DNA of 64,000 bases from an uncultured Chloroflexia bacterium. Its GTDB lineage: Bacteria; Chloroflexota; Limnocylindria; Limnocylindrales; CSP1-4. The translations under genes were made by a program, and so were the position numbers. Within the stretch, counting starts at the first letter, position 1. Each line of letters opens with the position of its first letter. Shown in pieces: positions 19,109 through 46,048 of the stretch. The stretch spans positions 43,937-107,936 of the forward strand of contig CAWHCW010000007.1 of assembly GCA_963827965.1 (NCBI GenBank). The letters run 5' to 3'. Below the pieces are notes generated by a model, which was given only the letters and a program-made list of their open reading frames with translations, made no database searches and had not been told where the DNA came from.

Positions 19109-19133
19109 CCGGCGAGGAGCCCGAGAGACCCGC

Positions 19134-21152: not shown

Positions 21153-21163
21153 GGGAGACGGCG

Positions 21164-24199: not shown

Positions 24200-24211
24200 C
24201 CCGCGGGGCGA

Positions 24212-24224
24212 CCCGCCGGGCGGG
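24212..24224. terminator. GC-rich hairpin (cccgcc-g-ggcggg) between the convergent nuoN and redoxin-like gene; possible bidirectional terminator
   Basis: The inverted repeat is visible in the sequence. No U-tract follows, so this is weak. Confidence 0.25.
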
Positions 24225-24249
24225 GGCGCCGCAACAGGTCGGCCGCGGC

Positions 24250-24906
24250 CTACTCGCCGATCGTCACGCCCGGCAGGATCGTGCCGAGGCTGCGGGCCAT
24301 CTGGTCGGGGCCGAGGCCGCCGAGCGCCGCGTCCCGCACGATCCCCGCCTTGTCGATCCAGTAGTGGACGGGCAGGGCGAGGGCGTCCCACGTCGCGGCG
24401 CGGCTTCCGTCGCCATCGAGGGCCACCGGAAAGCTGACGTCGAGCCCGTCGACGAACGGCTTGACCGTCGCCGCGTCCTCCTTGACGTGGATGGCGAGGA
24501 CCACCAGGCCCGTCTCCGCGTAGCGGGCGGCAAAGCCGCTCATCAGCGGGTACTCGTCGCGGGCGAGCCGGGCGTCGGTGCTGGTGAAGACGAGCCAGAC
24601 CGGCTTCCCCAGGTAGGCCGCGAGATCGATCGTGGCTCCGTCCAGGCCGGGGGCGACGAGCGACGGAGCCGGCCGGCCGACGAGCGGGAAGGGCGACGGG
24701 CTGCGCGTGGAGCTGGGGACCGGCGAGGCGGTCGCCGTGGGCGTGGGGAGGGGCGTCGGCGAGGGGAGCACCGCGACCGGCGTCGCCGTCGCGGCCGGCG
24801 TCGGGGCGGGCGCGGCGGGCACGAGCGAGTAGACGACGACGGCCAGGCCGAGGGCGGCGACGACGCCGGCGAGCAGTCCCAGCGCGATCGCGATGAAGGT
24901 GCGCAT
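24250..24906 (-). CDS. membrane-anchored thioredoxin-fold (TlpA/ResA-like redoxin) protein lacking the CxxC motif
   Basis: N-terminal TM helix (MRTFIAIALGLLAGVVAALGLAVVVY), a Pro/Thr-rich linker, and a redoxin-like domain (GKPVWLVFTSTDARLARDEYPLM...YAETGLVVLAIHVKED...). The region that normally reads WCxxC has no Cys. Confidence 0.45.
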   Translation of the reverse strand: MRTFIAIALGLLAGVVAALGLAVVVYSLVPAAPAPTPAATATPVAVLPSPTPLPTPTATASPVPSSTRSPSPFPLVGRPAPSLVAPGLDGATIDLAAYLGKPVWLVFTSTDARLARDEYPLMSGFAARYAETGLVVLAIHVKEDAATVKPFVDGLDVSFPVALDGDGSRAATWDALALPVHYWIDKAGIVRDAALGGLGPDQMARSLGTILPGVTIGE

Positions 24907-25082
24907 CGGCGCGGAGCGTAGCGGACTGGCGCCGAGGCTGCGCGGCCAGCGCGACGGGGCCCGGTTCGGGCGCGGCGTCCAGGCCGCGCCGGCCCGTCGC
25001 CCGCCGCGCAACAGGACCGGGACCTCTGCCGTCCCAGCACCGGACAAACCGCCGGGCGGCGCCGCCCGAACTGCTTGCTAGG

Positions 25083-25815
25083 ATGCTCTCACCGATGCAC
25101 TCCCTCCTCGCCTGGATCCGCGGCCGCCTCCTGCCCGCCCTCGTGACGGCGGCCGGTGTCGCCCTGCTCGTGGCGGGGCTGCTCACCTACCAGGACCCCC
25201 CGGAGGTCGTGGCGGTCGCGCCGTCGCCCGCTCCGTCCGGGCTGGCCACCGAGTCGCCGCTGCCCAGCCTCCTGCCGCTCCCCACGCTGACGCCGCCCGC
25301 GTCCCCGGCCCCGTCGTCCGAGCCCCGGCGCGGCCCGCGTCGCGAGCCGGGTGGTGGTGCCCCTCCTCCGCATCGACCTGCCGGTCGTCAGGCCGCCCGA
25401 CGACCCGAACCACTTCCCCTATTGCGATGTCGCCGAGTACCTCCCCGACCTGAGCCAGCCGGGCAGCCCGGGCACGACGTACCTCTACGCTCACGCCCGC
25501 GAGGGGATGTTCCTGCCGCTGCTCCTCCGGTCGCGGGTCAATGACGGGAGCGCGATGCGCGGGATGCTCGTCCAGGTCTACACCAGCGACGACAGGCTCT
25601 TCCTCTACGAGATCACCAGCGTCCTGCGACACCAGTCGGGAGAGGTCTACAACGAGCCCGAGGAGCAGCTGGTGCTCCAGACCTCGGAAGGTCCCGCGGA
25701 AGGGGCTTCCCGGCTACACCGGCCTCGTGCTCGTCGTCGTCGCCCAGCCGCTCAGCTCGGTCCGGCCGACCACGCCGCGGCCAACCCGATCGCGCAGCCG
25801 GTCGCCTGCCGGTAG
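25083..25815 (+). CDS. sortase-like transpeptidase (class E-like), frameshift near 25350, predicted catalytic Cys replaced by Ser
   Basis: The N-terminal TM plus Pro-rich linker (LLPALVTAAGVALLVAGLL..PSPAPS) is in one frame. The catalytic-domain-like VVPLLRIDLPVV...SQPGSPGTTYLYAHAREGMFLPLL...VNDGSAMRGMLVQVYTSDDRLFLYEITSV...QLVLQTSEGP is in the next frame. TS occupies the TLxTC position. Confidence 0.4.
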
Positions 25816-25822
25816 CCGCCGC

Positions 25823-26852
25823 TCAGATCCAGCGGATGCGGCGCAGCACCAGGGCGAGCCCCACCGCCAGCCCGACGATGCCGAGGGTGACGATCCAGAA
25901 GCCGACCGCCTCGGTGCGGGCGAAGGCCGCGCCCGCCTCGCTCATGCCGAAGATGCCGGCGAAGGCGCCGATCCCGGCCAGGATGACCGTGACGCCGGTC
26001 AGCCGCTTCATGATCAGCGACAGGTTGTTGTTGATCGTCGAGAGGTAGACGTCGAGGGCCGCCGTGACGAGCTCCCGGAACGAGTCGTACTCGTCCGAGA
26101 GGTGGACGGCGTGGTCGTAGATGTCGCGGAAGTAGACGACGTGCTCCGGGTCGATGAACGGGAGCGTCCGGTTCGTCAGCTGGTTGAAGACCTCGCGCTG
26201 CGGCGAGCTGACGTGGCGCAGCTCGACGAGCTGGCGCTTGAGGCCGAACAGCTGCTCCAGGGTGTCGGCCTCCGGCCGGCTCACGATCCGGTCCTCCAGG
26301 TCGTCCACCGCGTCCTCGATCCGGTCGAAGACCGGGTAGTACTCGTCGACGACGTAGTCGAGGAGTGCCCACAGGAGGTAGTCGGTCCCCCGGGCCAGGA
26401 CGGGCCCCACCCCTTCCCGCAGGTGCTGGGCGCGGCGGGGGTCCCAGAACCTGCGCGTGGACCGTCAGGAGGTACGTGCTCCCCAGGACGATGTCGATCT
26501 CGTCGACGATGAGCTCCCGCTCCCAGGCGACGGCGAAGACGACGAGGTGGGCGAAGCCGTCGGTCAGCTCCAGCTTCGGCCGCTGGTTCCGCTCCAGGAT
26601 GTCCTCGGCGATGAGCGGGTGCAGGCCGAGCTCCGCCGCGACGGCCTCGACGAGCGCCGGCGACGGGTCCGTCAGGTCGACCCAGTGGCGGGCGGTCGAC
26701 TTGCTGACCGCGTGTTCGAGCGCCTCGAGCCCCACGAGCGTCCGCTGCTCGCCGTCGCGCCAGTGCTCGACCCGGAGCGACGTCTGCGCCTCGGCGGCGA
26801 GCGCGTCAGAGGGCGATGCCGGGCTCGGATGCGTCGTCGATCCCCGCTCCAT
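25823..26852 (-). CDS. corA: CorA-family magnesium transporter (frameshift near 26400-26470)
   Basis: C-terminal YPVFDRIEDAVDDLEDRI...LTGVTVILAGIGAFAGIFGMSEAGAAF plus two TM helices. The N-terminal soluble domain is in another frame (LVGLEALEHAVSKSTARHWVDLTDPSPA...). Confidence 0.75.
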
Positions 26853-28497
26853 CGCCACCTCCCGCTGCGACCGCGGCGCCGCCGGCCGTCTCGTCGCGGA
26901 GCATACGCGGCCGGGCCCCGAGCGCGACGCCCGCCGGGAACGCCGCGACGGTCACCCCCGCGGCCACCAGGAAGAGGGCGACCATCGTCTCCGCCGCCTT
27001 CCCGGCCGCCCACGCCTCCAGGGCGTCGATGACGAGCGGGTCCCGCAGGGGTCGGTCCGCCAGCGTCGGCCCGACGATCGCCTTGTAGGCGTCCGGCGAC
27101 CCGAAGACCTGGCCGGAGAATCGCTCGATCGCGGTGGAGCCGTAGGCGGTCAGGACCGCGAGCCCCACCGCCATCCCGATCATCCGGGCGACGGTGACGG
27201 TGGCCGACGCCGTCGCCGAAGCGGGCCCGCCCCACCGCCTCGACGGCGGCCGTGCTGCGGGGCGTCACGGTCAGGCCGAAGCCCAGCCCGAAGAGCCCGC
27301 CGGCGGCCGCGACGACCGGGTAGGTCACCTGCGCGTTCCAGGTGCCCATCCAGAGGAGGCCCGCGATCGACGCCCCCAGGCCCAGGGCCGTCACGGCGCG
27401 GAGCGACCAGTGCCGCACGAGCCAGCCCGACGCGAGGGCGCCGACCGCCGTGGCGGCCGCGAGCGACCCGAGGGCCAGGCGCTGGTCGTCGGGACCGCCG
27501 TAGAGGACCCGGTCCACGAAGACGGCCGAGCCGACGATCGCCGTGGCGAAGGCGTAGCCGGTCAGGAGGCTCACGAGGGCCGCCGAGGCGAAGACCCGGT
27601 CGGCGAAGAGCCGCGGGTCGAGGAAGGGTGCCTGCCGCCGCAGGCCGAGGACGATCGCCGCCAGGCCGGCCGCCAGGCCGACCACGATCAGCCCCGCGGA
27701 GACCAGGGCGGGGTCGAGACCGGCCCCTGCGCCGCCCCGGAGCCCTGCGCCGCCCCGGCCCCCTCGCCCAGGAGGGTCACCCCGAGGAGGATCGTCCCCA
27801 GGGCGACCGTGAAGAGGAGCGCGCCGGCGAGGTCGACGCGGGCCTTCGCCCGCGGGGTGTCCCAGCCCGCGGTGGCCGCCCAGCCCAGGGCGAGGGCGGC
27901 GATCCCCATCGGCACGTTGACGTAGAAGACGTAGCGCCACGCCGGGGCCAGGAGGTCCGGCGCGGGGCCGCCGAGGATCCCCAGCCGGATCAGGGCGGCC
28001 TCGGGCCGGATCGCGTCCAGGATGGCCGCCCCCAGGAACGGCCCGGCGGCCATGCCCAGGAACGTCAGCGCCCCGATCACGCCGAGCGCCCGGGGCCGCT
28101 CGTGGCCTTCGAAGAGGTGGGAGGCAGCGGCCGTCGCGACCGGGACGAGGGCACCGCCGCCGACCGCCTGGACGGCGCGCGCGGCGATCAGCTGGTCAAG
28201 CGTCTGGGCCATCCCCGCCAGGAGCGACCCGAGGGTGAAGAAGACGAGCGCGCCGAGGAAGAGGCGGCGGGCCCCCCACAGGTCGGCGAGGCGGCCGGCG
28301 AGGGGCATGGTCCCGACGTAGACGAGGAGGTAGGCGTTGATGATCCAGCTGGCGTGGCGGAGCTCCGTCCAGCTGCCCAGGTCGACGACGATCGCCGGCA
28401 GGGCGACGGCGGTGATCATCAGCTCCAGGCCGGCGAGGAAGACGCCGGTCCCCAGCACGGCAAGGAGGATCAGGGCAACCCGGCGGTCCATGCGCGG
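26806..28497 (-). CDS. MFS transporter (DHA2/EmrB-like), at least 2 frameshifts
   Basis: MDRRVALILLAVLGTGVFLAGLELMITAVALPAIVVDLG...AYLLVYVGTMPLAGRLADLWGARR..., then later TM segments in two other frames ending ...GPTLADRPLRDPLVIDALEAWAAGKAAETMVALFLVAAGV. Confidence 0.6.
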
Positions 28498-28569
28498 AGT
28501 GTAGGGCCGCGCCGGGGGCCGCCATCCGCCGGCCGGTCGGCCCGCGAACGTCGATGCATACTCAGCCCC

Positions 28570-29088
28570 GTGAGCGGCGGCAGCGGGCTCGAGATCGAGC
28601 GCAAGTACCTCCTCGCCGGCGTGCCGGCCGAGGCCGACCTCGTGGCGCTGGGCGCCCGCTCCGTCCGGATCGAGCAGGCCTACCTTCGGGCGGAGGACGA
28701 CTGGGTGCGTCGCGTGCGCCGCATCGACGCCCCGGAGGCCGTCCGATACGTGCTCACCCGCAAGCGCGAGCTGTCGGGAATCGTGCGGCAGGAGCTGGAG
28801 ACCGACCTGACGGCCGAGGAATACGGTCGCCTCCTGGCGGACGCCGACCCGGCGCGGCGGGTGATCCGCAAGACGCGGCAGGTGATCCTCTACGGCCCCT
28901 GGACGCTGGAGCTCGACGTCTTCAGCGAGCCCCCCGGGCTCGTCCTCCTGGAGGTCGAGCTGGACGACGCGGACCAGGTGCCCGAGCTGCCGCCGTCGAT
29001 CGCCGCCCTCGTCGTGCGCGAGGTGAGCACGGAGACGGCCTACCTGAACCATCACCTCGCGCTGCGGGGGACTCCGCCCGTGGCGTGA
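28570..29088 (+). CDS. CYTH-domain (triphosphate tunnel metalloenzyme / class IV adenylate cyclase-like) protein
   Basis: GSGLEIERKYLLAGVPAE...IEQAYL...LTRKRE...ELETDL...LELDVF...GLVLLEVEL. Confidence 0.75.
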   Translation: MSGGSGLEIERKYLLAGVPAEADLVALGARSVRIEQAYLRAEDDWVRRVRRIDAPEAVRYVLTRKRELSGIVRQELETDLTAEEYGRLLADADPARRVIRKTRQVILYGPWTLELDVFSEPPGLVLLEVELDDADQVPELPPSIAALVVREVSTETAYLNHHLALRGTPPVA

Positions 29089-29163
29089 CGACCGGCGCGG
29101 GTCGTCGGGGGGCGGCGTCCTGCCCGCTTGACGCGCCGGACCGCCCGCGGCACCCTCGTCGCG

Positions 29164-29445
29164 ATGACCCCGAAGCCGCGCGACGACCAGGCCGACGACC
29201 TGCCCTCCGCCGAGGCCGCGCGCGCCCGACGGCGCGACCGCGACGCGACCGCCGCCGAACGCTCCGGGATGCGGACCGGGCTGGCCAAGCAGTTCAAGCA
29301 GGTCCTCGACGCCCAGGTGAAGCGCGGCCGCGCCGCAGGCGAGGGAGACGAGGAGCCGCTGCCCGACGGCCGTCCGCCGGGCTCCTCGCGGACGAAGCGC
29401 CGCAAGCGCGGGCAACCCCCCGGCGACACGGCCCCGGAGCCCTGA
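29164..29445 (+). CDS. small hypothetical protein, low complexity (Arg/Asp/Lys-rich)
   Basis: ORF MTPKPRDDQADDLPSAEAARARRRDRDATAAERSGMRTGLAKQFKQVLDAQVKRGRAAGEG... It may be spurious. Confidence 0.2.
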   Translation: MTPKPRDDQADDLPSAEAARARRRDRDATAAERSGMRTGLAKQFKQVLDAQVKRGRAAGEGDEEPLPDGRPPGSSRTKRRKRGQPPGDTAPEP

Positions 29446-29580
29446 CCGCGGGACCGGAACGACCGGGGGATCCTCGTCAGGCGGCCGGCCGTTGGCACGA
29501 AGCCCCCGGTTCGTGCTCACGCAGTGCGTCCGCGCGGGCCACATCGCGCGCCAACCGGGGCCGCAGGCCCGGCCCGCCCC

Positions 29581-29632
29581 TTGACAGGCGCCGGAGCCGG
29601 CGTCTACCATCAACAACGCTTTATATAAACGC
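29581..29632 (+). promoter_or_regulatory. putative sigma70-type promoter (TTGACA-18-TACCAT) with an AT palindrome operator (cgcTTTATATAAAcgc) immediately downstream, upstream of the ArsR-family gene
   Basis: TTGACA at 29581-29586, TACCAT at 29605-29610. The 10-bp perfect palindrome TTTATATAAA at 29621-29630 is the lowest-GC spot in the window. Confidence 0.4.
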
Positions 29633-29635
29633 ACA

Positions 29636-30025
29636 TTGCTGAGCAGCGGCCGTCGACGGCCGGCGCCCCGCCACCCCGATCGGAGCCGCCCCCTGAGCCC
29701 CTCGCCCGCCCGCATCCGCTCCACGATCGCCTCGATCGTCGACCAGCCGGACGACCTTCGCGAGATCCGCATCTTCCACAAGGCGCTCGCGGACGTGAAC
29801 CGCCTCCGCATCGTGCGGCGCCTGGCGGACGGCCCGGCGAGCGTCGGCGACCTCATCGATCACGTGGGGCTCAGCCAGCCCCTGGTCAGCCATCACCTCC
29901 GCCGTCTCCGCGAGGCCGGGCTCGTCGTCAGCCGGCGCGCCGGCCGCGAGACGATCTGCTCCCTCCGGCCGGAGGCCTTCGGCGAGGTCGCCGCCCGCGA
30001 GCGGGCCATCCTGGGGATGACCTGA
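29636..30025 (+). CDS. ArsR-family HTH transcriptional regulator
   Basis: IFHKALADVNRLRIVRRLADGPASVGDLIDHVGLSQPLVSHHLRRLREAGLV. TTG start; the true start may be internal. Confidence 0.7.
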   Translation: MLSSGRRRPAPRHPDRSRPLSPSPARIRSTIASIVDQPDDLREIRIFHKALADVNRLRIVRRLADGPASVGDLIDHVGLSQPLVSHHLRRLREAGLVVSRRAGRETICSLRPEAFGEVAARERAILGMT

Positions 30026-30027
30026 TC

Positions 30028-30762
30028 GTGGCCATCTCGAACGGCACGCGGAGCAGGGTCAAGAAGGCCGGCGAGCCGCTCGCCCTCTTCCTGGGGCGCC
30101 GGGGGCTCACCCCGGACGGGCTCACCCTCATCGGCTTCGGGATCACGGCCGTCGGCGCCGTCCTGCTGGCCAACCAGCTCTGGCTGGCCGGCGGCCTCGT
30201 GGTGTTCGTGGGGGGCGCGTTCGACATGCTCGACGGAACCCTGGCCCGGGCCACGGGACGGGTGAGCCGGCTCGGCGCCTTCATGGATTCCGTCTTCGAC
30301 CGCATGGGTGAGGCGCTCGTCTACGTCGGCCTGATCTGGGGCACGCTCGACCTCGGCCTGTGGCGTCCCGTCGTCCTCGCCGCGGCGGCGATGGCGGCGG
30401 CATTCATGGTCAGCTACACGCGGGCCAAGGCCGAGGGCCTCGGCTTCTCCGCCGGCAGCGGCATGGCCGCCGTCGGCCTCGCCCCGCGCGAGGTCCGGAT
30501 CGTCATCCTGACCCTCGGTCTCGTCGTCGCGGGCATGCTCCCCGGCTTCCCGGAGGACATGGACACGCCCGGCGCCCTGGCCTACCCGCTGTCGGCGCTC
30601 GCGCTCGAGGCCGCGCTCGCGCTGATCGCGATCCTCGGGACGGTCACCGTCGTCCAGAGGATCCTCAACACCCGCGGCCAGGCGCGCCTCCAGGCGCGCG
30701 CGGACGCGATGAACGCGGCTGTCGACGCCACCACCACGGAGGCCGGCGAGCAGACGAGCTGA
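30028..30762 (+). CDS. CDP-alcohol phosphatidyltransferase (phosphatidylinositol-phosphate synthase-like)
   Basis: D-x2-DG-x2-AR...G-x3-D-x3-D motif ([31 protein letters not shown]) in a multi-TM protein. It is adjacent to ino1. Confidence 0.8.
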
Positions 30763-30817
30763 ACGAGCGAATCCACCCCCACCACCCACCAGCAGCAGGA
30801 GTGAGAGCAGACACCAG

Positions 30818-32059
30818 ATGGCCAAGAAGAACGGGAACAACGGCGCGAGCGGCAATGGAGCGAACGCCCCGGAGCGGGCGTGGGCCGGGTCCAGGCGCAA
30901 GGATGGCAAGATCCGCGTCGCCATCGTCGGCGTCGGCAACTGCGCCAGCAGCCTCGTCCAGGGGCGCTACTACTACGAGAACGCGAAGGAGACGGACTTC
31001 GTGCCCGGGCTCATGCACGTGAGCCTGGGCGGCTACCACGTCCGCGACATCGAGTTCGTGGCTGCCTTCGACATCAACAAGACGAAGGTCGGCAAGGACC
31101 TCTCCGAGGCGATCTACGCCCATCCGAACAACACGATCGTCTTCCAGCAGGTCGCCCCCATGGGCGTCACGGTCGATCGCGGGATGACCCACGACGGCCT
31201 TGGCAAGTACCTCAGCCAGATCATCGAGAAGGCGCCCGGCCCCACGGCCGACATCGTCGGGATCCTCAAGGAGCGCGAGGTCGACGTGATGGTCTCCTAC
31301 CTCCCGGTGGGGAGCGAGGAGGCCACGAAGTGGTATGCCGAGCAGGCCCTCAAGGCCGGCGTCGGCTTCGTCAACGCGATCCCGGTCTTCATCGGCCGCG
31401 AGCCGTACTGGCAGCGCCGCTTCGCCGAGGAGGGCCTGCCGGTCATCGGCGACGACATCAAGAGCCAGGTCGGCGCGACGATCAGCCACCGGGTCCTGAC
31501 CCGCCTCTTCATGGATCGCGGCGTCCGCCTGGACCGGACGTACCAGCTCAACTTCGGCGGGAACACGGACTTCCTGAACATGCTCGAGCGCGAGCGCCTC
31601 GAGAGCAAGAAGATCAGCAAGACGAACGCGGTCACCTCGATGCTCGACTACGAGCTCGAGCCCGGCGACGTCCACGTCGGCCCCAGCGACCACGTGCCGT
31701 GGCTCCTCGACCGCAAGTACTGCTACATCGTCATGGAGGGCACGACCTACGGCGACGTGCCCCTGAAGGCCGAGCTCAAGCTCGAGGTCTGGGACAGCCC
31801 CAACAGCGCCGGCGTCATCACCGACGCCATCCGCTGCCTGAAGCTCGGACTCGACCGGGGCCTGAAGGGCACGCTCGTCGCCCCGTCGGCGTACTTCATG
31901 AAGAGCCCGCCGCACCAGCTCCACGATGACATCGCCTACAACCGGGTCGAGGCGTTCATCCGCGGCGACGACAACGAGACCCTGGAGGGGACCGAGAAGC
32001 CGGCCGTGCGCAAGCTCCGGACTCTCGCCAAGGCACCGGCCAGGGTGGCCGCCAGGTGA
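30818..32059 (+). CDS. ino1: myo-inositol-1-phosphate synthase
   Basis: Intact 413 aa ORF: [18 protein letters not shown]...[32 protein letters not shown]...[25 protein letters not shown]. Confidence 0.95.
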
Positions 32060-33162
32060 CATCCGTCCCCGGGGGCCCGGACGGCGCGGCAGCGGCCGCG
32101 TCGCCGGGGACCGAGGCGAAGAACGGCAGCGAGGGGCGTCTGCGGGCGCCCCATCGCCGCCCGGGTGGCGGCCGCCGCGCCCGCGAGAAGGTCGTCGTGA
32201 GCGCCTACCGCGCGGGCTCCTGGATCCTGGGCCGGCTCCCCTTCGGCCCGACCGTCCGGGTCGGCGGCTGGATCGCCGTCGCCGTCTACGCCCTGTGGCC
32301 CCAGAAGCGGCGTCACGTCCGGGCGAACGCCGCCCGGATCCTCGATCTGCCCCCCGGCGACCGCCGGGTCGACGCCCTGGGCCGCGCCGTGTTCCGCAAC
32401 CAGGTTCGCTGGGTGATCGAGGGGATGCACCTGGCCCGAATGTCGCCGGCCCGGCGCCTCGCCCAGTTCGGGGGGCCGGGACCCGACAGGCTCCACGCGA
32501 TCTGGAAGGCATCGAGGGGCGTCATCCTGACGGGTCTCCACATCGGCAACGGAGACGCCGCCGCGGCTGGCATGGCCGGCCGCGGCCTGCCGATCCACAT
32601 CCTCGCCGACGACACCGCGCACGAGGAGCTCTTCGAGCGGTTCAGCGCCCAACGACAGAGCTGGGGCGTGGAGGTCATCCGCTGGCGGAACCTTCGCGAC
32701 GTCTACCGGGTCCTGCGCAACCACGAGATCCTCGGGCTCCTGGTCGACTGGGGCTACCGCCCGGAGGGGCAGGCGGTGCGCTTCCTGGGCGCCTGGACCA
32801 CGCTGCCCACGGGACCGGCCGTCCTGGCCGCCCGGACCGGGGCGACCATCCTTCCCTTCTGGACCATCCGCTGCCCCGACGGAACCTTCCTGGGCGAGGT
32901 CGGGACGCCGATCCAGGTCGCTTCGGGCGAGCCGGCGGAGATCGCCCGGGCGACGCAGGCGATCGCCGAAGCGCTCGAGCCGGCGGTCCGCGAAGCGCCG
33001 GAGCAATGGTGCGTCTTCAAGCCCATGTGGCCCGCCGACCCGGTGGCGGAGGCCTTCCTGGCCGAGCGCGCCCGGGACGACCGCGCCGCCCCCGCGCTGC
33101 CGGGCGACCGCACCGCGGCTGAGGACGACCGGACCGCCGCCGTGCACGGAGCCGCCGGATGA
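32056..33162 (+). CDS. LpxL/HtrB-family lipid acyltransferase (PIM acyltransferase PatA-like)
   Basis: [29 protein letters not shown]...[12 protein letters not shown]...[17 protein letters not shown], typical of the lauroyl/myristoyl acyltransferase family. Confidence 0.7.
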
Positions 33163-34188
33163 CCGTCGCGTCCGCCGACCCGGGGGACCAGGTGCGCGGC
33201 ACCGTCGCGCAGCGCGCCCGGGCGGCCCTCGTGGGCGGCCTCGCCGTCGTGCTCGACCACCTTCCCGCCGCCGTCGTCGACGGGGCGTGCGACGCCGCCG
33301 GCGAGCTCTGGTATCACGCCGCCCCCGGCCGCGCGGCGATCGCCCGCGGCAACCTCGGCCACATCGCGGAGCGACTCGCGGCCGAAGAGCGCGGCAGTGC
33401 CCGGGCTCGCGCCGCGGCGAGCGACCCGGCCGCCCTGGAGCGCCTGGTCCGAGCCGCGTTCCGCCATGCCGTGCGTGGCTACGCCGAGACGCTCAGCTGC
33501 GCCGCGGTCGCCCGCGACGTCCGCCGCCACCTCGTCGTGGACAACCCCGAGGTCGTGGACGCCGCCTTTGCCGCGGGCGGCCCGGCCGTCTTCGCCTCGC
33601 TCCATTTCGGCTCGATGACGGCCGTCGCCTCGATCCTGGGCAGCCGCTCGCGGGTCCCCGTGACGGCGCCGATGGAGACGCTCGTGGACCCCGAGCTCCA
33701 GCGGGTGATGCTGAGGGCCCGGGAGAGCGTCGGCGTCCGGATCGTCGGCCTCGCCGAGGCCCGCCGTGAGCTCCGCGCGGCGCTGGCCCGCGGCGAGGCC
33801 GCCGGGCTCGTCGCCGATCGCGACATCGCCGGGGGCGGGATGCGCGTCCCCCTCTTCGGCCTCCCGGCGTCGCTGCCGATCGGCCCGGCGTACCTGGCCC
33901 TCGACGCCGGGGTGCCGCTTCACGTGGCCGCCGCGCGGCGCTCGACCCGTGACCGCTTCCGGGGCCGGCTCGTCACGCTGCCGCATCCGTCGGCCGACGC
34001 TGCCTCGCCGGGCCCGCGTCGAGGCGCTCCTCGCCGCCACCGCGGCCGCCTTCGAGGACCTGGTGGCCGAGGCGCCGGAGCAGTGGTGGACCGTCTTCTT
34101 CCCGATCTGGGACGACGTGGGCCCGCGTCCCCGGGGTCGCGCGAGCGCGCCCGCCGGGACGCCCCGGCCCGCGGAGCCCACGCCGTGA
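33159..34188 (+). CDS. second LpxL/HtrB-family acyltransferase (frameshift near 34010)
   Basis: VFASLHFGSMTAVASILG...GLVADRDIAGGGMRVPLFGLPASLPIGPAYLALDAGVPLHVAAARR..., then a C-terminal ...EAPEQWWTVFFPIWDD in another frame. Confidence 0.55.
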
Positions 34189-34990
34189 GCTCCCCGGTCC
34201 TCCGCTCGGCTCACGGCCCGGATCCCGCCGCTCCGCACGGCCGGGCCGACCTCCACATCCATACCCTCGCCTCGGACGGCGTCTGCGGCGTCGAGGAGAT
34301 CCTCGCCTTCGCCGTGGAGCAGACGCAGCTCGACGTGATCGCCATCGCCGACCACGAGCGGGTCGACGCGGCGCACGCCGCCCGCGCCATCGCCCGGGCA
34401 CGGGACCTTCCCCTGGAGGTCGTCGTCGGCGAGGAGGTGACCACCCGCGGCGGCCACCTGCTCGCCCTCTTCATCGAGGAGGCGATCCCTCCGCTCCGTT
34501 CGCTGCGGGAATCGATCGGCCTGGTCCACGAGCAGGGTGGCCTCGCGATCCCGGCCCACCCGCTCTTCCCGTACCCGCTCTGCGCCCAGGCCTGGACGCT
34601 CCGGGCCCTGCTGGACGCGAAGGACCCGCGCGTCCGGCCCGACGCCCTGGAGGCATTCAACCCCACCACGTTCGGGCGCCCGGTGCACCGCCGCGTGGTC
34701 GCCTTCGCGGCCGAGCGCGGCCTGGCCGTGGTGGGCAACAGCGACGCCCACGAGGCCGCCGAGCGTGGGGACGGGCTGGACCACGTTCGCTGGCCGGACC
34801 GCCGAGGACGTCCGGGCCGCGATCCTGGCGGGCGCCAGCGGCTGGCACGGGAGCTTCCACGGCACCTCGTCGCAGCTGCCGACGTTCGGGCAGCAGCTCC
34901 GCAAGTACGGCCGCGACGCCCGGGCGGAGATCCTGGGCCGGGCCCGCCGCGACGGGATCGGGCCGCGACCACGGCTATCCCGGCGGCGAC
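34187..34990 (+). CDS. PHP-domain metal-dependent phosphoesterase (frameshift near 34775; stop not resolved)
   Basis: ADLHIHTLASDGVCGVEEILAFAVEQTQLDVIAIADHERVDAA...GGHLLALFIEE...LAIPAHPLFPYP...VVGNSDAHEAAERGDG, the PHP histidine/aspartate motifs. The tail GWTTFAGRTAEDVRAAILAG is in the next frame. Confidence 0.6.
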
Positions 34991-35047
34991 CGGCGGCCGC
35001 CAGCGCTCCAGATGCCGGCCGTCGCTCGGCGGGGAGAGGAGGAGCGG

Positions 35048-36231
35048 CCGTGAAGGTCGGGCTGGTGACGCCCTACGTCTATCCGCTCCCTGGCGGCGTC
35101 AACGACCACGTCGGGCACCTCTACGAGAGCCTCCGCGCCCGCGGCCACGACGTCCGGATCCTGACCGCCAGCCACGGCCTGCAGCGCAGCTCCGAGGGCG
35201 ACGTGATCCGGATCGGCAAGGGCTTCTCCGTGCCGTCCAACGGCTCCGTCGGGACGCTCACCGTCTCTCGCCCGCTACCCGTCGCAGATCCGGGACGTCC
35301 TGGAGCGGGAGCAGTTCGACCTGCTCCACTTCCACGAGCCGTTCGTCCCCTTCCTGACGCTCATGACGCTCGCGCGAATCGCGGAGCGTGAACGTCGCCA
35401 CGTTCCACGCCTTCGCCGGCTACGCCCCCGGCTACCAGCTGGGTGGCCGGATGCTTGGCCCGGTCGCGGCCAACCGGCTCCACGGGCGCATCGCCGTCAG
35501 CGCCGCCGCCCGCCACTTCGCGGACCGCTACCTGCCGGGCGACTACAAGGTCATCCCCAACGGGGTGGATCTGCGTCGCTTCGACCACGCCGTCCCGCTG
35601 GCCCGCTGGCAGGACGGCCACCCGAACATCCTCTTCGTCGGGCGCCTGGAGCCGCGCAAGGGCCTGGTGCACCTCCTGAAGGCGTTCCGGATGGTCCGCA
35701 AGGCAGGCTGCGACTGCCGCCTTCTCGTCGTCGGCTCCGGGCCCCTGGAGCGCGAGGCGCGGCGCTACGTCATGACCCGCCGCCTCGGCGGCGTCGAGTT
35801 CCTGGGGCGCGTCTCGGACCAGGAGAAGGTCCAGCTCTTCAAGACCGCCGACGTCTACGTCTCGCCGGCGACCGGGCGCGAGAGCTTCGGGATCGTCCTG
35901 CTCGAGGCGATGGCGGCCGGGACGGCCATCGTCTGCAGCGACATCCACGGCTACAAGGGCGTCGTGAAGCGCGGCGAGCAGGCCCTCCTCGTGCCGCCCG
36001 GCGACCATCGCCAGCTCGCCGAGGCCATCCTCCGCCTCGTCGGCGACGCGGACGCTGCGGGCGCGCATGGCGGCGAGCGGCCTGGTCCGCGTCCAGGAGT
36101 TCGGCTGGGACCGGATCGCGGCCCGCGTGGAGGCCTACTACGGGTTCGTCATCCGCCGCCTCGCGGCCCAGGGGGCGCTCCCGGCCCACTATGCCGCCGA
36201 CGTGCCCGCGGACCCGCGCCTGCCCGGCTGA
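35048..36231 (+). CDS. GT4 glycosyltransferase, PimA-like (phosphatidylinositol mannosyltransferase), 3 frameshifts
   Basis: VKVGLVTPYVYPLPGGVNDHVGHLYESLRARGHDVRIL..., then ...FDLLHFHEPFVPFLTLM..., then ...FVGRLEPRKGLVHLLKAF...SPATGRESFGIVLLEAMAAGTAIV..., then ...RVQEFGWDRIAARVEAYY. A good RBS (ggagaggagga) precedes the GTG. Confidence 0.75.
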
Positions 36232-36246
36232 GCCGCTCCGCGGCGG

Positions 36247-39200
36247 TCAGGCCGCGGCGGCGCCCGGATCGCAGTCGTCGTCCTCCGCCCTGCGCTCGGC
36301 GAGGGCCAGCCGCCAGACCCAGGCGGAGTAGGCCACGAAGCCCGCCGCCAGCATCACGGCAGCGAAGAGGAGCACCGGCCACGGGCCCAGGAGCGAGACG
36401 CTCACCGGCGGGTCGACGTTGACGGGGAACTGGAAGGGGTAGAGCCAGGTCGGCAGCAGGCCCTGGTACCAGTTGTAGACGGCGCTGGGCAAGGGCAGGC
36501 CGGACACGTTCGGGTAGAAGAGCACGAAGACGAAGCAGGCCGCCAGGACGAGGCCCACCGCGAAGCGCCGCGGCGAGGCCGCCCGCACGACGACCCAGGC
36601 GAGGGGACCCAGGATCCCGAGGAGGAGCAGGGCAAGGAGCTCGCCGGGCACGCCGCCGGTCTCCACGAGCGGCGTCGCGGGCAGGAGGAGGGCGGCGGCG
36701 GCGAGCGCCGCGACCCCGCCCCCGAGGGTGAGCCAGATCCGGACGATGGCCGGGTGCGCCTCGGTCGGCAGCCGCCCCGCGGCGCGATCGCCCGATCGAC
36801 GTCCAGGAGCTGCCAGACGAGGGCGATCCCGGCGACGGCGATGACGGCGATCAGGCCGACGGCCTGCAGGGTGAGGGCGATCGGCAGCGCCGCCGGCTGC
36901 GTGCAGGCCTGGGATCCCGGGTTGGCGCGTTCCACGTCGACGACGGCGCAGAGCGGCCCCCGGAAGAGCCAGAGCGCCACCGGCCCCAGCACGGCGCCCG
37001 CGGCGGCGGCCCGGACGAGGAGCCACGTCCGGCGCGACGGACCGTGCCAGATCTCGGCCACGAAGTAGGCCAGGGCGAGGAGCACGAAGGGCAGCGCCGT
37101 GTAGTAGTGGTACTGGAACGCCGCCCGGTCGATTCGCGCCCAGGGCAGCCACAGCGACGGCGAACATGATTCCCAACAGGGCGAGGGCCAGGCTGCGCCG
37201 GCGGAAGGCCTGCCACGCCACGAACGCCAGGGCGGGAATCGAGAGCCACCAGGTCAGCCAGGTTGCCGGCGTCGTAGATGGCCCCGACGGTGCCGCCGGC
37301 GAAGCTCTCCTGGTAGAACCAGACCGGCTTCAGGTTGGCTGGCCAGGCCCACCAGGGCGAGGCAGCGGCGTGCGTCGCCCGCAGGTCGTTGTGGTAGTCG
37401 TACATGTCGACGAGTCAGGTCGAGCAGCGTCTGCCCGTCGTGGCCCGGCGGCCAGCCGGGAACGATCTGGTTCCCGAGGTCGGCCCACGGCAGGTACGAG
37501 ACGACGTAGACGACGACCGGGATCGCGAGCAGGCAGAGCGCCGCCCAGGCGATCGGCAGGCCGGCCAGCCAGCCCGGGCGCAGCCAGCCCGGCGGCGCCG
37601 GATCGGCGGGCTCGAGCAGGGTCGCCGGGTCGTCCGGCGCCGGCAGCGGGGCGAGCGGCCCGAGGCCCAGGCGTCCGGCGAGCCAGAACGCCCCGGCGGC
37701 CGCGCCGCCGAGCGCCATCAGCCCGACCGCGGCGGCCTGCGCGAGCGGGCCCAGGCCCAGCGGACATGGAGGCCAGGCCCAGCAGGGCTCCCGCCGACGG
37801 CCGGCCCGCCGACGGCGATCCGGATCTCCTCCACGGTCCAGGCCACGGGATGGAGGACGGCCACCGCCGACGCGACCAGGGTCAGGGCGACCATGAGGAG
37901 CAGGAAGAGCAGGTTGCCGCCGGTCGTCGCCTCGGGGCCGGTGGAGATGGCCATGTAGCCGAGGGTCGCCGCGATCGCCGCCAGGCCGACCACGATGAGG
38001 GCCCGCCCCAGGGCCGAGCGGAGCAGGATCAGGAGCCCGATGCCGCCGATCGCGTACAGGGCAACCCACTTCGAGGCAAGGGCCAGCCCGAGGAGGATCC
38101 CGATGACGGGCAGGCCCACCCAGAAGGCGCCCGCCAGCGCCATGCGCCGGTCCAGATCGTGGCGAAGAGCGTCACGGCCGCGACGATGAAGAGCGCCACG
38201 TAGGCGTCGTTCATCGCGATCCGCGATTGGGCGAAGAGCATCCCGTCGGCCAGGACGAAGAGGCCCGCCAGGACGGCCACCGCCCGGCGCCGGAAGAGGA
38301 TCCGGGCCAGGAGGTAGAGCAGGCCCGCCATCAGGGCGCCGGCGAGGACGCCGGGAAGGCGCCAGGCGAAGGCGTTCTGGCCCATGTCCACCGCCGCGCC
38401 GGCCCCGTCCGCGGCGAAGAGGAGGAGCTGCTGGCGGTCGCTGCTGGGATAGGCCGTCGCGGTGTCCACGGCCCAGGCGGCCGGGGCGAAGGGAAGGACG
38501 GCGTCGGCGAAGACGGAGTTGCCGCGCGGCTCGACGACGTAGACGGTCGTGGCGGCGCCGTCCGCCGTCCGGCCCAGGGCGTGGACCAGCTGGCTCGCGT
38601 CGTTGAACGCCACGCGCTCCACGGCCCCCGGCATCCAGACGGTCCGCTGGAGCGAGGCCGCCTTGTCGCTCGTGGGCATCTTCACGACGGCGAGGGTGCT
38701 CCCGCTGGCGACGTAGAGCGTCGGCGCCTCGAGGCCCTCCACGGCGACGAGGCTCGTCGCGGCGGCCTCGAGCGGCACGCTCCCCGTGGCGCGCCCCGAG
38801 GCGGGCTCCAGGAAGGTGACGCCGGCCGCGCCGGCGACGGCCACCTGCGGCACCTGCTGGACGGCCAGCCCGGCCAGCCGGCCGTCCGCGATCGCCGCGT
38901 CGATCCCGGCGATGGTCGCGTCGATCGCCTCGCGGTCGGCTCCGAGGTCCGCCGTCACGATGACGCTGGGCGCATCGCGGGCCAGCAGATCGCGGTACGT
39001 CGCCTCGTCGCCGCCGGTCAGGCCGGCGACGACGGCGGCGGCGGCGGCGGGATCGGGCACCTCGGCCGGCGTGGCGACGAGCGCGTCGACACGTCCGGCG
39101 TCCGCCACGTCGGCGCGCCCGTCGATGGTGGTTCGCGAGAGCTCGGCCGCGGTCGCCGCGTCGAGGGTCACGAGGCCGTCGTCCGGCGTTCCCGCGACCA

Positions 39201-39941
39201 GGTAGTCGCCCACCGCCCACCGCCCAGAGCCGCTCGACGGGCGCCCCGACCGTGGCGAAGGCGATCGGCGCATGGTCGGCGGCGGCGGCGCGCAGGTCGT
39301 CCGCCGTGACCTCCGTCGCAAAGGCCAGGATCGTGCCGTCCTCCGTCCCGACGTAGGCCTCGCGGGCCACGCGATCCACCGCGACCGCCCGGGCGCCGGG
39401 CACCGCGAAGCGGGCCAGGAGGGCGCGCGTCCGCAGGTCGTACAGATCCAGGGAGTCGCCCGTCACGACGTAGAGGCGCTCGCCGCCGCGCGTCATGGCC
39501 CCCGGCTCGGACTCCTCCGTGACGTCCCAGCGCGGCTCGATCGCCGCGTCCCGGACCGCCGTCCCGAGGTCGCTCTCGGCGACGACCCGGTTGTTCCCGA
39601 AGAAGTCGATCCCCTCGGCGATCGCGTACTTGGCGAGGTGGGGATGGGTGTACTCGTAGATCCCGTGCGGGCTCGCCGTAGCGCCAGTCCTGGAGGAACT
39701 CGATCGCCGTCCGGGCGTGGTAGACCTCGTCGAAGTGCATCCGCATCGGCTCGCCGAGACGGAACGTCCGCAGGCAGAGCGCCGCCACGACCAGGACCAG
39801 CAGGAACCAGAGGTCGAGGCGGTCGAGGCGCCCGCCGCCCTCGCGGGCGAGCGAGGCGGTGCGGTCGAAGGGGAAGGGCGGCGGCGCGTCCGGGGCGTCG
39901 TGCGCGGATCGCGCGATGGCTCCCGCTGCGGCGCCCGGCAT
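36247..39941 (-). CDS. large PMT/GT39-family (protein O-mannosyltransferase-like) membrane glycosyltransferase with a central soluble repeat region; heavily frameshifted
   Basis: PMT signature LDLWFLLVLVVAALCLRTFRLGEPMRMHFDEVYHARTAIEFL (about 39700), then HGIYEYTHPHLAKYAIAEGIDFFG, many TM segments down to 36247 (..WYQGLLPTWLYPFQFP..), and a beta-strand-rich middle segment. The pieces are spread over all three minus frames. Confidence 0.45.
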
Positions 39942-39949
39942 GGCGCCCG

Positions 39950-41520
39950 AGGCGGCGGCATGGCGAGGGGCGGCGGCGCCACGCGCCCCGGGCCGCGTCC
40001 GGCGGCCGTCGGCGCGACGCGCGCCGGCGATCCCGGCGCTCGGTGGATGGCGGGTGGCCGCGCTCCCGCCGGGTCGCCCCCGCGAGGCGCGGCCGGATCC
40101 TCCTCGTCGTCGATCGGCGTCGATCGGTCCGTCGTCGAGCTCGCGGTCGGTCTCCCCGGCCACCGGCCGGACCAGGAAGGCCGCGGCCGCGACCAGGCCG
40201 CCGGCGTGGGCGAGGGCGGCGACCCAGACGCCCGCCTGCGAGCGGATCGCCTCCCCGAGCCGCGTGCCCGAGCCCCCCGAAGGCATCGAGCATCGGCGCG
40301 AGACCCGGGTTGTCGTAGAACGGCAGGGTCAGGATCCCGTAGAGGTTCGCGAAGTTGGCGGCCGCGAGGATCGCGTAGACCACCGCCCAGCGCGGCCGGA
40401 GGACCAGCAGGATCGCCCCGAGGGCGAAGAACGGGTAGAGGTAGCGCTCGTGGACGCGCGTGGGGATCACGAAGAAGGCGATGGCCATGACGGTCAGGGC
40501 CACCAGGAGCGCCCGCCGGTCGTCGTGGCGACGCCACAGGACGACCATGAGGCCGATGATCGCGACGCCGATGAGGGCCCCGCCGATGAGGACCGCCGGG
40601 ATGCCCAGGGGGGCCAGGAACGGATCGGTCGGGCGTGCCGGGTCGAGCACGTCGCGGATCCACGTCCCGGCCGACGCCAGCCCGGAGCCGTCGAGCGAGA
40701 CGAGGGCCCATGGGTTGTAGGCGTTCACCGTGGCGTACGGATAGCCGCCGGCGGTCGAGAGGATCTGGCCGAGGAGGCTGTTCTCGAACGGGATCCCCAG
40801 CGAAGGGGAGGGGCACGATCGCCAGGCCGAACGGGAGGCAGACGAGCGTCGCGGCCAGGATCCCGGCGATCGTCGTGGTGAGGATCCGGATGGGCCCGCC
40901 ACCCAGCGGGCCGCCGTCATCCGGCCGCTCGACCAGGTGGCGGCGGACGATCACGACGGCGGCGAGGGGGATCAGGATCCCGAACTGGGGCTTGATGATG
41001 GCGGCGATCGTGGTCAGGATCGCGGCCCGCTCGGACCTCCCCCGCCACAGCTCCCGGACGGCCAGCAGCAGGAAGAGCGTCCCGACGGAATCCACCTGGG
41101 CCCAGACGGCGCTGTCGAACCAGGTGATGGGCACGAGCAGGAAGACGGCCGCGGCGGCGATCGCGCCCCGGCGGGTCGCGCCGAGCTCGGCGGCCAGGGC
41201 GAAGATGGCCAGGGCCAGGGCCAGGTCGGCGACGATCGCGGGCAGCTTGAGGAGGTCGCCGATGGGGACCGCAAGCGCCTGGGAGACGAGCCCCAGCCCC
41301 CACAGGACGTAGAGGTAGCCCGGCGTGTAGTCGACGAAGATCTCGCGGTCGTAGAGGCCCCACGGCCCGTTCTTGGCGAGCTCCATCGCCCACCCGGAGA
41401 AGCTGCCGAGGTCCACCTCGAACCCGGAGCCGGGCAGGAGAACGTATGCGATGATGAGGCGGAGGGCGAGGCCGAGCGCAAGAAGGACGCCGAGCGGAAC
41501 GACGGCGTCCCGCATGCGAA
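39950..41520 (-). CDS. GT-C fold integral membrane glycosyltransferase (possibly fused to the downstream PMT-like gene)
   Basis: MRDAVVPLGVLLALGLALRLIIAYVLL...FEVDLGSFSGWAMEL...YTPGYLYVLWGLG...AIIKPQFGILIPL, then ...TRVHERYLYPFFALG... in another frame. No stop was resolved before the PMT-like region. Confidence 0.4.
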
Positions 41521-41612
41521 CCCGGGCCTGCTCGCCGGCCCGCGCGCTCTCGCCCGCTGCGGGGCCTGGCACGGGTTGTTGGTTCGGCCTCCCTGGAACG
41601 AGCGCTGAGGTG

Positions 41613-45506: not shown

Positions 45507-45517
45507 CGCCCGGCCGC

Positions 45518-46048
45518 CTACTCGCGCGGCGGCCCCTCCCGGGGCCTGTCGGTGCCCGGCTCGACGTCGAGCGAGTTCACGAAATCGCGGAAGATCGAGA
45601 GGCGCTCCTCGTCCACGGGCTCGTCGTCGTCCGCCCGGTCGCTCTCCACGCCGGCGCGGTCGAGGACCTCCTCCGCCGCGTAGATGCGCGCGCCCGTTCG
45701 CACGGCGAGGGCCAGGGCGTCGGACGGCCGGGCATCGATCTCGAGGACCCGGCCCGCGACCTCCAGCATGATCCGGGCGTGGAAGGTCTCATCGGCGAGG
45801 TCGGCGATGACGACCTCGCCGATCGTGGCCCCCAGCTCCGCCAGGACGCCGGCGAACAGGTCGTGGGTGAGTGGCCGCTCCGGGGAGAGCCCCTGGAGCT
45901 TCATCGCGATCGCGTTCGCCTCCCACGGCCCGATCCAGATCGGCAGGAAGCGGTGGCGTTCCAGGTCCTTGAGGATCACGACGTGCTGGGTCGAGAGCAT
46001 GTGCACCCGCACGCTCTCGACCGTCATCTCGACCAGGCGTCCGCCCAT
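45518..46048 (-). CDS. bifunctional nuclease (BFN/DUF151) domain protein
   Basis: MTVESVRVHMLSTQHVVILKDLERHRFLPIWIGPWEANAIAM...RPLTHDLFAGVLAELG...ARPSDALALAVRTGARIYAAEEVL. Confidence 0.65.
   Translation of the reverse strand: MGGRLVEMTVESVRVHMLSTQHVVILKDLERHRFLPIWIGPWEANAIAMKLQGLSPERPLTHDLFAGVLAELGATIGEVVIADLADETFHARIMLEVAGRVLEIDARPSDALALAVRTGARIYAAEEVLDRAGVESDRADDDEPVDEERLSIFRDFVNSLDVEPGTDRPREGPPRE

Follow-up and report, generated by a model that had tools for sequence, protein, structure and literature searches.

A 64,000-nucleotide stretch of DNA from an uncultured Chloroflexia bacterium (contig CAWHCW010000007.1, positions 43,937 to 107,936; the whole stretch is called the window below) carries a compact block of seven genes that appears to encode the entire path from glucose-6-phosphate to an acylated glycolipid of the phosphatidylinositol (PI) mannoside (PIM) type. 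In this reading, a PHP-family phosphoesterase would supply the step from phosphatidylinositol phosphate (PIP) to PI, and an ArsR-type repressor would control the operon in which it is encoded. We consider this full reading reasonably likely on the sequence evidence, and we regard it as highly probable that the block is a PI-glycolipid operon of the PIM type. Searches against Pfam, NCBIfam, and PDB bore out the preliminary description of the block, made from the sequence alone, in that seven genes of the families listed in Table 1 lie consecutively on the + strand. All coding signal within the block, as judged from the G+C content of third codon positions, is located on this strand; the window has a G+C content of 74%, and third-position G+C follows the reading frame cleanly. 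The genes are tightly packed behind one promoter for the block, with four of the junctions formed by 4-nt GTGA/ATGA start/stop overlaps and with gaps of 2 nt between the ArsR and transferase genes and 55 nt between the latter and ino1. Based on the overlaps and the single promoter, the layout is predicted to be that of one translationally coupled operon.

Table 1. Features of the seven-gene block and of the two convergent genes downstream of it (positions in the window)
Feature	Coordinates	Strand	Basis
Seven-gene block with promoter and tandem palindromic operator	29581-36231	+	Pfam, NCBIfam, PDB searches
Sigma-70-type promoter: -35 TTGACA, 18-nt spacer, -10 TACCAT	29581-29586 (-35); 29605-29610 (-10)	+	
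Putative ArsR operator, two abutting 16-bp inverted repeats	29609-29640	+	Alignment, motif counts
ArsR/SmtB-family winged-helix regulator	29693 (or 29636)-30025	+	HTH_5, NF033788
PIP synthase-type CDP-alcohol phosphatidyltransferase, 244 aa	30028-30762	+	PF01066, NCBIfam, PDB
ino1, myo-inositol-1-phosphate (inositol-3-phosphate) synthase, 413 aa	30818-32059	+	PF01658, TIGR03450
AT1, LpxL-family acyltransferase, more PatA-like paralogue, 368 aa	32056-33162	+	PF03279, PRK07920, PDB
AT2, LpxL-family acyltransferase, divergent paralogue, 342 aa (corrected)	33159-34188	+	PF03279, PRK07920, PDB
PHP-family metal-dependent phosphoesterase, 288 aa (corrected); proposed PIP 3-phosphatase	34185-35053	+	PHP/PHP_C domain
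PimA-like GT4 glycosyltransferase, 392 aa (corrected)	35050-36231	+	PDB match to PimA
PMT-family (GT-C) membrane glycosyltransferase, convergent	36247-39970 (5' limit approximate)	-	PF02366, PF16192
Membrane protein with weak GT87 match, convergent	40128-41665	-	PF09594, 20.5 bits, below cut-off

In the known bacterial route, Ino1 converts glucose-6-phosphate to inositol-3-phosphate, PIP synthase (PIPS) joins the latter to CDP-diacylglycerol to give PIP, and PIP is converted to PI (PMC6506517, PMC9246714); PimA then transfers mannose from GDP-mannose to PI, yielding PIM1 (PMC9202250). In the window, Ino1 would form inositol-3-phosphate from glucose-6-phosphate, the PIPS-type membrane enzyme would combine it with CDP-diacylglycerol to PIP, and the PHP metallophosphoesterase would remove the ring phosphate of PIP to release PI. 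The PimA-like GT4 enzyme would attach a hexose to PI, most likely mannose from GDP-mannose. PatA converts PIM1 to AcPIM with acyl-CoA, and the two PatA-like acyltransferases would correspondingly contribute one or two additional fatty acids. The ArsR-type repressor probably binds the tandem repeats at the -10 box and would control its own synthesis together with the pathway. The enzymatic activities, the identity of the sugar, the acylation sites, the substrate of PHP, and the binding and ligand of the repressor are all inferred here from sequence. The preliminary description had already placed the whole route in one block. A candidate for every step is indeed present, but the claim hinges on PHP as the PIP-to-PI enzyme: that description gave PHP no role, and since it is the sole candidate in the block for this step, the completeness of the route depends on it.

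The CDP-alcohol phosphatidyltransferase reaches 52.5 bits with PF01066 and displays the full signature DMLDGTLAR-x8-G-x3-D-x3-D, which matches the generic CDP-alcohol signature D-x2-DG-x2-AR-x8-G-x3-D-x3-D. Among the NCBIfam models, archaetidylinositol-phosphate (AIP) synthase scores 135.2 bits and PIP synthase 122.2 bits; the BT_1523-type model fits less well (94 bits), and the alternatives ClsA, PgsA, and PssA reach 29.7, 25.7, and 24.9 bits, respectively. In the PDB, PgsA1 of Mycobacterium tuberculosis (6h53) is the best match with 68.5 bits, compared with 22 bits for PssA and 19 bits for PgsA. The enzyme thus groups with the PIP and AIP synthases (135 and 122 bits) and not with PgsA or PssA (about 25 bits), as the preliminary description had anticipated. 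The inositol-phosphate pocket of M. tuberculosis PgsA1 is basic and includes residues S132, K135, R152, R155, and R195 (PMC6506517). In a HMMER alignment, S132, R152, and R155 are identical in the window enzyme and K135 is replaced by Arg; R195 aligns with Ile, probably through misalignment, the motif VVQRIL five residues downstream resembling CVQRLH. The presence of ino1 in the block was likewise confirmed by matches of its product to PF01658 (116 bits) and TIGR03450; the protein is 92% identical to its counterpart in L001, the closest relative found, which shares 83% DNA identity with the window across 12.7 kb.

Both acyltransferases belong to the LpxL family, and for each of them PatA is the best characterized match, in agreement with their original description as PatA-like. 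AT1 scores 103.7 bits with PF03279, 135 bits with PRK07920 (PIM acyltransferase), and 68.9 bits with PatA (5f2t), its best PDB match, while the corresponding values for AT2 are 65, 78, and 39.9 bits. The His of the PatA motif HSGNWD is kept in both (HIGNGD in AT1, HFGSMT in AT2; HX4D-type motif), and the Glu of the PatA motif ERD is changed to Asp (VDWG in AT1, ADRD in AT2); we take H126 and E200 to be the catalytic His of PatA and its acidic partner. Because AT1 and AT2 form separate conserved lineages in all full clusters, they are suggested to perform two distinct acylations. The GT4 enzyme aligns with PimA of Mycobacterium smegmatis (2gej/4n9w) over its full length (residues 2 to 365) with 209 bits and 36.9% identity across 360 residues, whereas PimB' (78.7 bits), MshA-type enzymes (68 bits), and BshA (58 bits) follow at a distance. 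Its grouping with PimA, proposed earlier, is therefore upheld by 209 versus 78.7 bits for the next best match. Residues of PimA that are critical for activity or contact GDP-mannose, as determined by mutation or structure, have been listed (PMC9202250); those kept in the window enzyme are Y9, P14-G15-G16, N63, H118, R196, E199, P200-R-K-G203 with R201 and K202, D253, K256, E274-S-F, I278-V279, and E282.

The PHP phosphoesterase was recognized by its PHP/PHP_C domain and, consistently, its predicted structure shows a PHP fold. The AlphaFold2 model has a pLDDT of 81 and a pTM of 0.76 and features the PHP barrel, for which Foldseek returned 3e38, 7ug9, 2anu, and 9etk with E values of 1e-9 to 1e-11. 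Among 45 orthologues, H24, H26, D31, H57, H115, and H125 are invariant, and conservation reaches at least 90% for E83/E84, D187, and H189. These residues (HxH, D, DH, E, H, H, DxH) are presumably metal ligands, a mapping that we base on YcdX-type sites. The protein scores below the cut-offs of all characterized equivalogs (54.4 versus 375 bits for RNase RNM, 34.5 versus 400 bits for the bisphosphate phosphatase), and the matches to these two models are limited to the N-terminal approximately 70 residues. A basic, weakly to moderately amphipathic C-terminal helix is conserved, which hints weakly at a peripheral contact with the membrane. The PIP phosphatase of the actinobacterial PI route was described as unidentified in 2019 (PMC6506517), and likewise in 2022 for the time before the Bacteroides result discussed below (PMC9246714). 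Given this pathway gap and the gene context, PHP is the best candidate for the PIP-to-PI phosphatase, an assignment to which we give close to an even chance. It is the best candidate because PHP has been kept inside the module through rearrangements and across distant lineages, and the conserved metal-type motifs, the confidently predicted PHP fold, and the lack of membership in any characterized equivalog family support it as well. We know of no PHP enzyme that acts on a lipid headgroup.

Upstream of the seven genes, TTGACA-18 nt-TACCAT is the sole promoter-like site in 7.8 kb (29000-36800), where 0.1 would be expected. The promoter and palindrome noted in the preliminary description are real, and both are conserved in place in 24 orthologous loci, which together with the window make up the 25 sequences of the regulatory alignment. 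In these sequences, TTGAC and TAnnAT vary little or not at all, and the loci share a common architecture in which TTGACA, a spacer of 17 to 19 nt, and TAGCAT precede two 16-bp inverted repeats that abut each other. The family consensus of the repeats is ATCAAC-N4-GTTGAT, present twice; in the window they read ATCAAC AACG CTTTAT followed by ATAAAC GCAC ATTGCT and overlap the -10 box, with the AT-rich palindrome TTTATATAAA (29620-29629) forming the center of the element. The operator motif occurs once in the window (0 expected by chance) and is found exactly in 13 fetched loci, with one site per locus at an equivalent position; 12 of the 13 carry it on both strands 10 nt apart, as tandem palindromes predict. 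A more distant clade has ATAAGC-N4-GCTTAT instead, so that both arms of the repeat differ together between the clades. Tandem repeats over a -10 box represent the classic layout of the operator of an autoregulated repressor, and the ArsR protein probably binds them.

The first gene indeed encodes an ArsR-type regulator, which passes the family cut-off (85.9 bits with NF033788, cut-off 55) and scores 63.6 bits with PF01022 (HTH_5). Its start is probably CTG 29693, which is located downstream of GGAG and at whose position orthologues have ATG or GTG, with the in-frame TTG 29636 as an alternative. An alignment of 19 ArsR sequences contains no conserved metal-sensing motif (α3 CXC, α5 Asp/His/Glu cluster); a single semiconserved Cys is found within V/T-I-C-S/T-L. 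Owing to the absence of the metal-sensing motifs, the protein is probably a nonmetal sensor.

The arrangement is not peculiar to this genome but recurs widely as a conserved module. Among 185,579 species genomes examined, nearly all of the best 80 ino1 relatives carry Chloroflexota labels; the closest approximately 35 are mostly labeled Candidatus Limnocylindria, Limnocylindrales, or "uncultured Chloroflexia," and a few metagenome-assembled genomes (MAGs) with short contigs are labeled otherwise (Binatia, Verrucomicrobiia). By these relationships, the host, a soil-type bacterium, is assigned to the class Limnocylindria of the Chloroflexota and is not an actinobacterium, so that Actinobacteria, recommended earlier for comparative synteny, are the wrong phylum for comparison. 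Wherever a Limnocylindria-type locus offers enough sequence, the order is ArsR-PIPS-INO1-AT1-AT2-PHP-GT4; this applies to approximately 35 loci, which include short-read assemblies and in which protein identities go down to approximately 35 to 50%. Other orders are (ArsR)-INO1-AT-AT-PHP-GT4-PIPS in L054, L076, and L077, INO1-PHP-GT4-PIPS in L047, and INO1-GT4-PIPS, without PHP, in several Dehalococcoidia. A PHP-seeded scan of 1.84 billion representative proteins, followed by gene-context look-ups, again located PHP homologues with 33 to 41% identity inside PI/PIM modules. Specifically, L081 has the gene order of the window plus a PMT gene; L087 to L089, which stem from a protein cluster with named members labeled Chloroflexota or Candidatus Dormibacteraeota, and L091, where the module is followed by an epimerase and a GT2 gene, have the order INO1-AT-AT-PHP-GT4-PIPS; and L085, a metagenome contig with a PHP that falls into one cluster with a Thermodesulfobium protein (WP_448589677.1), has the order PHP-Ino1-AT-PHP-PIPS-AT-GT4. 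Overall, PHP has been retained in the module in no fewer than four gene orders and across distant lineages. Note that two loci contain two PHP paralogues, one within the cluster and one flanking ino1 (L085, 5508-6164 and 8001-8735; L091, 2033-2797 and 6001-6774).

A number of observations weigh against the full reading. The transferase stays below the equivalog cut-offs for AIP synthase (135.2 versus 180 bits) and PIP synthase (122.2 versus 170 bits) and for this reason is classified as a divergent PIPS-type enzyme and not as a strict equivalog. Ino1 reaches 523.8 bits with TIGR03450 (cut-off 638), and AT1 and AT2 remain under the PRK07920 equivalog cut-off (135 and 78 versus 209 bits); from these scores, AT1 and AT2 are taken as PatA-like enzymes, not as strict PatA equivalogs. 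The acceptor side of the GT4 enzyme differs from that of PimA by the replacements Q18 to N, Y62 to S, and R68 to T, and the basic amphipathic helix 77-RKVKK-81 reads SQIRD. As parts of the PI-binding loop (residues 59 to 70 of PimA; PMC9202250) and this helix are not conserved, the acceptor or membrane-binding mode of the enzyme may differ from that of PimA. One could go further and propose that this PimA relative uses another sugar or another inositol or lipid acceptor, so that the inositol glycolipid formed would not strictly qualify as a PIM; an identity to PimA of only 37%, the lack of a specific NCBIfam name, and the loss of Y62, R68, and the basic helix would fit such a specificity. We judge it improbable, however, as the GDP-mannose contacts (G16, R196, K202, E274-S-F, I278-V279, E282, D253, and K256) are kept, PimA is by far the best characterized match, and, as in mycobacteria, genes for PatA-like acyltransferases lie alongside. 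It is extremely unlikely that the block serves a soluble inositol pathway, i.e., synthesis of mycothiol or di-myo-inositol phosphate, instead of a membrane glycolipid. Although MshA, also a user of inositol phosphate, is a GT4 enzyme and TIGR03450 is named for the mycothiol-type Ino1, this option was rejected on the basis of the weak scores with MshA (61 to 78 bits versus 209 bits for PimA) and with the DIPP-synthase model (48 bits only) and the presence of two lipid-type LpxL acyltransferases and a membrane PIPS; moreover, no gene for MshB, MshC, MshD, or a cytidylyltransferase is present.

The remaining points of this kind concern PHP and the integrity of three of the genes. PHP has no transmembrane segment, and both L073 and the minimal INO1-GT4-PIPS clusters of Dehalococcoidia lack it; consequently, PHP is not an obligatory colocated part of the pathway. 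A replacement phosphatase was sought in the flanks of L040, L044, L066, and L073, but these hold housekeeping genes only (truB, purA, rbfA, and a holB-like gene), leaving a nonorthologous displacement of PHP unsupported. In addition, the PHP relatives P0219 and P0193 (35 to 37% identity) adjoin DUF5656 genes outside inositol clusters. These DUF5656-paired relatives, which appear to mark the edge of the PHP subfamily, form a sister group represented by L090 (5935-7548) and L093 (763-2418); in L090, an LCP (LytR-CpsA-Psr) gene is adjacent as well. Two other distant PHP relatives lie on contigs too short for context, and apparent fusions of PHP with GT4, AT, or GT2 (PHP-GT4, AT-PHP, and PHP-GT2 in P0135, P0233, P0236, and P0238) were set aside as possible read-through artifacts, given the 4-nt gene overlaps in high-GC metagenome contigs. 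An operon that makes PI glycolipids might contain a PHP enzyme that hydrolyzes free inositol phosphate, a nucleotide by-product (e.g., pAp or GDP), or RNA, with the PIP phosphatase encoded elsewhere. Besides the lack of a transmembrane segment, this alternative draws on the nearest characterized relatives being RNase AM and 3',5'-bisphosphate nucleotidases and on the several INO1-GT4-PIPS clusters that need PIP dephosphorylation yet lack PHP. Its weak sides are that the scores for a nucleotidase or RNase are far under the equivalog cut-offs, that an inositol-phosphate phosphatase encoded alongside PIPS would compete for the substrate of the latter, that no other gene of the block fits the phosphatase step, and that PHP has been retained through the different gene orders and lineages described above; all in all, we consider it rather unlikely. 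No PgpA domain, the type found in the Bacteroides PIP phosphatase, was detected among the seven operon proteins, to which the scan for PgpA was limited.

In the present sequence, the open reading frames of AT2, PHP, and GT4 are broken by six frame shifts within 2.1 kb; were these real, three genes would be dead in this genome. DNA alignment with L001 traced them to 1-nt insertions, each causing a +1 shift, at position 33999 in AT2, at positions 34763 and 34957 in PHP, and at positions 35270, 35371, and 36053 in GT4. Removal of the inserted bases restores the full-length proteins of Table 1; for PHP, the corrected sequence shares 97% identity, from end to end, with P0001, an intact metagenomic protein of 288 residues. 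In L001, as in short-read MAGs (e.g., L002), no frame change interrupts the orthologues of the three genes. The six breaks are insertions only, none of them in homopolymers, and codon (GC3) periodicity continues undiminished past each break, as does protein conservation (86 to 97% to L001). Many +1 frame breaks occur at 33999-40264 and in patches at 1023-2015, 4852-6867, 24195-29510, and 45478-51186, where they also hit unrelated genes, e.g., PMT-like and MFS genes; wherever a close relative permits a check (29.6 to 42.2 kb), they are single-base insertions outside homopolymers, and stretches without frame breaks include 15620-22533 (nuo genes) and 29581-33998. This patchy, insertion-only pattern suggests an unpolished long-read assembly or another sequence corruption, not biology. 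The clustering of six +1 shifts could still be taken to mean that AT2, PHP, and GT4 are pseudogenes and that the genome makes at most PI or PIP, but given the type and patchiness of the breaks, the preserved periodicity and conservation, and the intact orthologues, the shifts most likely are assembly or sequencing errors, and true pseudogenes are very improbable.

Downstream of the operon, two convergent genes encode a PMT-family protein, which comprises 1,231 residues in L001 and is frame-broken in the window, and a GT87-like membrane protein of 536 residues in L001 (L001 counterparts of both genes, 15356-20662). Both are syntenic with the operon in approximately 20 Limnocylindria loci, with identities of 44 to 53%. 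The PMT-family protein has a central insert of approximately 400 residues, and the PMT gene in L081 encodes a 2,048-residue product. For the GT87-like protein, no relative was found in the PDB, and with only a subthreshold Pfam match, a PimE-like identity was not adopted. Further downstream, a run of envelope-glycosylation genes on the + strand codes for a conserved membrane protein without a Pfam match (41700-42260 and beyond), for a TMEM260/PMT_2-like protein (43109-44128), and for a GT2 (44130-45476) whose best solved relatives are the polyprenyl-phosphate glycosyltransferases ArnC, DPMS, and GtrB and which could make the donor for the GT-C proteins. From these similarities, an extension of a PIM anchor that depends on lipid-linked sugar, or protein O-mannosylation, is a possible function of the neighboring genes. 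Tentatively, and with somewhat less than an even chance, it may hold jointly that PHP is the PIP phosphatase missing from PI synthesis in bacteria other than Bacteroides, a new activity for PHP enzymes, that AT2 carries out the second acylation, and that the GT-C and GT2 neighbors may build a lipomannan-like lipoglycan on the PIM anchor in bacteria that are not Actinobacteria.

Upstream of the operon lie an MFS transporter gene and the nuo operon. The segment 28594-29445 (+), upstream of the promoter, contains a weak CYTH-like open reading frame (17 bits, below cut-off) and a highly charged one of 105 residues (29128-29445); the region of the small charged frame is kept in L001 with 82% DNA identity, and 28498-29121, containing the CYTH-like frame, has no match there. 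At a greater distance, dnaA (51606-52955, -) is followed by approximately 1.35 kb without clear coding periodicity (52958-54307) and then by yidC and jag/khpB (+), and 51606-56640 probably is the replication-origin region; the E. coli-type DnaA-box consensus is not enriched, with a single 1-mismatch match in the whole window that lies outside this region. Two segments of this otherwise densely coding genome, 61204-63316 (2.1 kb) and 1-1022 (1.0 kb), show no clear codon periodicity and no Rfam or tRNA match; Rfam and tRNA scans of the whole window gave no matches either.

The closest parallel in gene content is the mycobacterial pgsA1-patA-pimA cluster (Rv2612c-Rv2610c), in which the same three families are adjacent on one strand. 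The catalytic residues of mycobacterial PgsA1, PatA, and PimA are conserved here, although identities amount to only approximately 25 to 37%. The window differs from the mycobacterial cluster in its Chloroflexota host, the inclusion of ino1, the presence of two acyltransferase paralogues versus one, the embedded PHP gene, and the leading ArsR-type regulator with its own operator. The mycobacterial cluster is adjoined by HIT and Nudix genes, with ino1 (Rv0046c) located elsewhere. The ino1 genes of Corynebacterium and Mycobacterium are regulated by IpsA, a LacI-type protein. IpsA and the ArsR protein of the window are alike in being, putatively in the present case, dedicated regulators of inositol-phosphate synthesis for inositol lipids of the envelope; in contrast to IpsA, the window regulator is an ArsR/SmtB winged-helix protein, is encoded by the first gene of its presumed target operon, and has a putative operator made up of tandem inverted repeats. 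De novo PI synthesis outside Actinobacteria is known from BT_1522-BT_1526 of Bacteroides thetaiotaomicron (Heaver et al. 2022, PMC9246714), where the myo-inositol-phosphate synthase gene (MIPS, ino1) is clustered with those of a PIP synthase and a PIP phosphatase, like the candidate set here. However, the Bacteroides phosphatase (BT_1525) is PgpA-like and unrelated to the PHP family, and its cluster leads to inositol sphingolipids and lacks the PimA-like and PatA-like genes that the window has. As for PHP itself, the best matches by sequence and structure are 9etk, 7ug9, and 2yb1, and the TrpH/YciV type (RNase AM; the 3',5'-nucleoside bisphosphate phosphatase Cv1693) shares its fold and metal motifs. 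It is set apart from this type by scores far under the cut-offs, the distinct basic C-terminal helix, and the context of lipid synthesis. We infer a chemical analogy between PIP and pAp, on which the nearest characterized relatives act, each being a ring polyol that bears a phosphomonoester and, next to it, a second phosphoryl substituent.

Taken together, the pathway and its core enzymes are known, and the apparent novelty lies in how the features are combined: the phylum, a complete organization in one operon that includes ino1, an ArsR autoregulator with its operator, a second PatA paralogue, and, above all, a conserved PHP phosphoesterase that occupies the place of the missing phosphatase. 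A literature search, which covered mostly journals outside subscription, returned neither a description of a PimA cluster in Chloroflexota nor a report linking a PHP enzyme to PIP dephosphorylation; it likewise gave no confirmation of acyl-mannosyl phosphoinositol diol lipids in Thermomicrobia, and such lipids are not drawn on as evidence here. PIMs and their PI anchor are usually regarded as characteristic of Actinobacteria, and they are of interest as drug targets in tuberculosis. To our knowledge, the second PIM acyltransferase has not been identified in mycobacteria. The module sets one candidate for each of the two pathway gaps, the PIP phosphatase and the second acyltransferase, beside known enzymes in many genomes and gene orders, which makes both directly testable by heterologous expression. 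Should PHP turn out to be the PIP phosphatase, the superfamily would gain a new activity. Judging from the distribution of the module, the production of PI-mannoside-type glycolipids is probably widespread among the abundant, mostly uncultured Chloroflexota of soils, MAGs labeled Dormibacteraeota, and Thermodesulfobium, which bears on envelope construction in these bacteria and on the reading of inositol-lipid biomarkers in soils.

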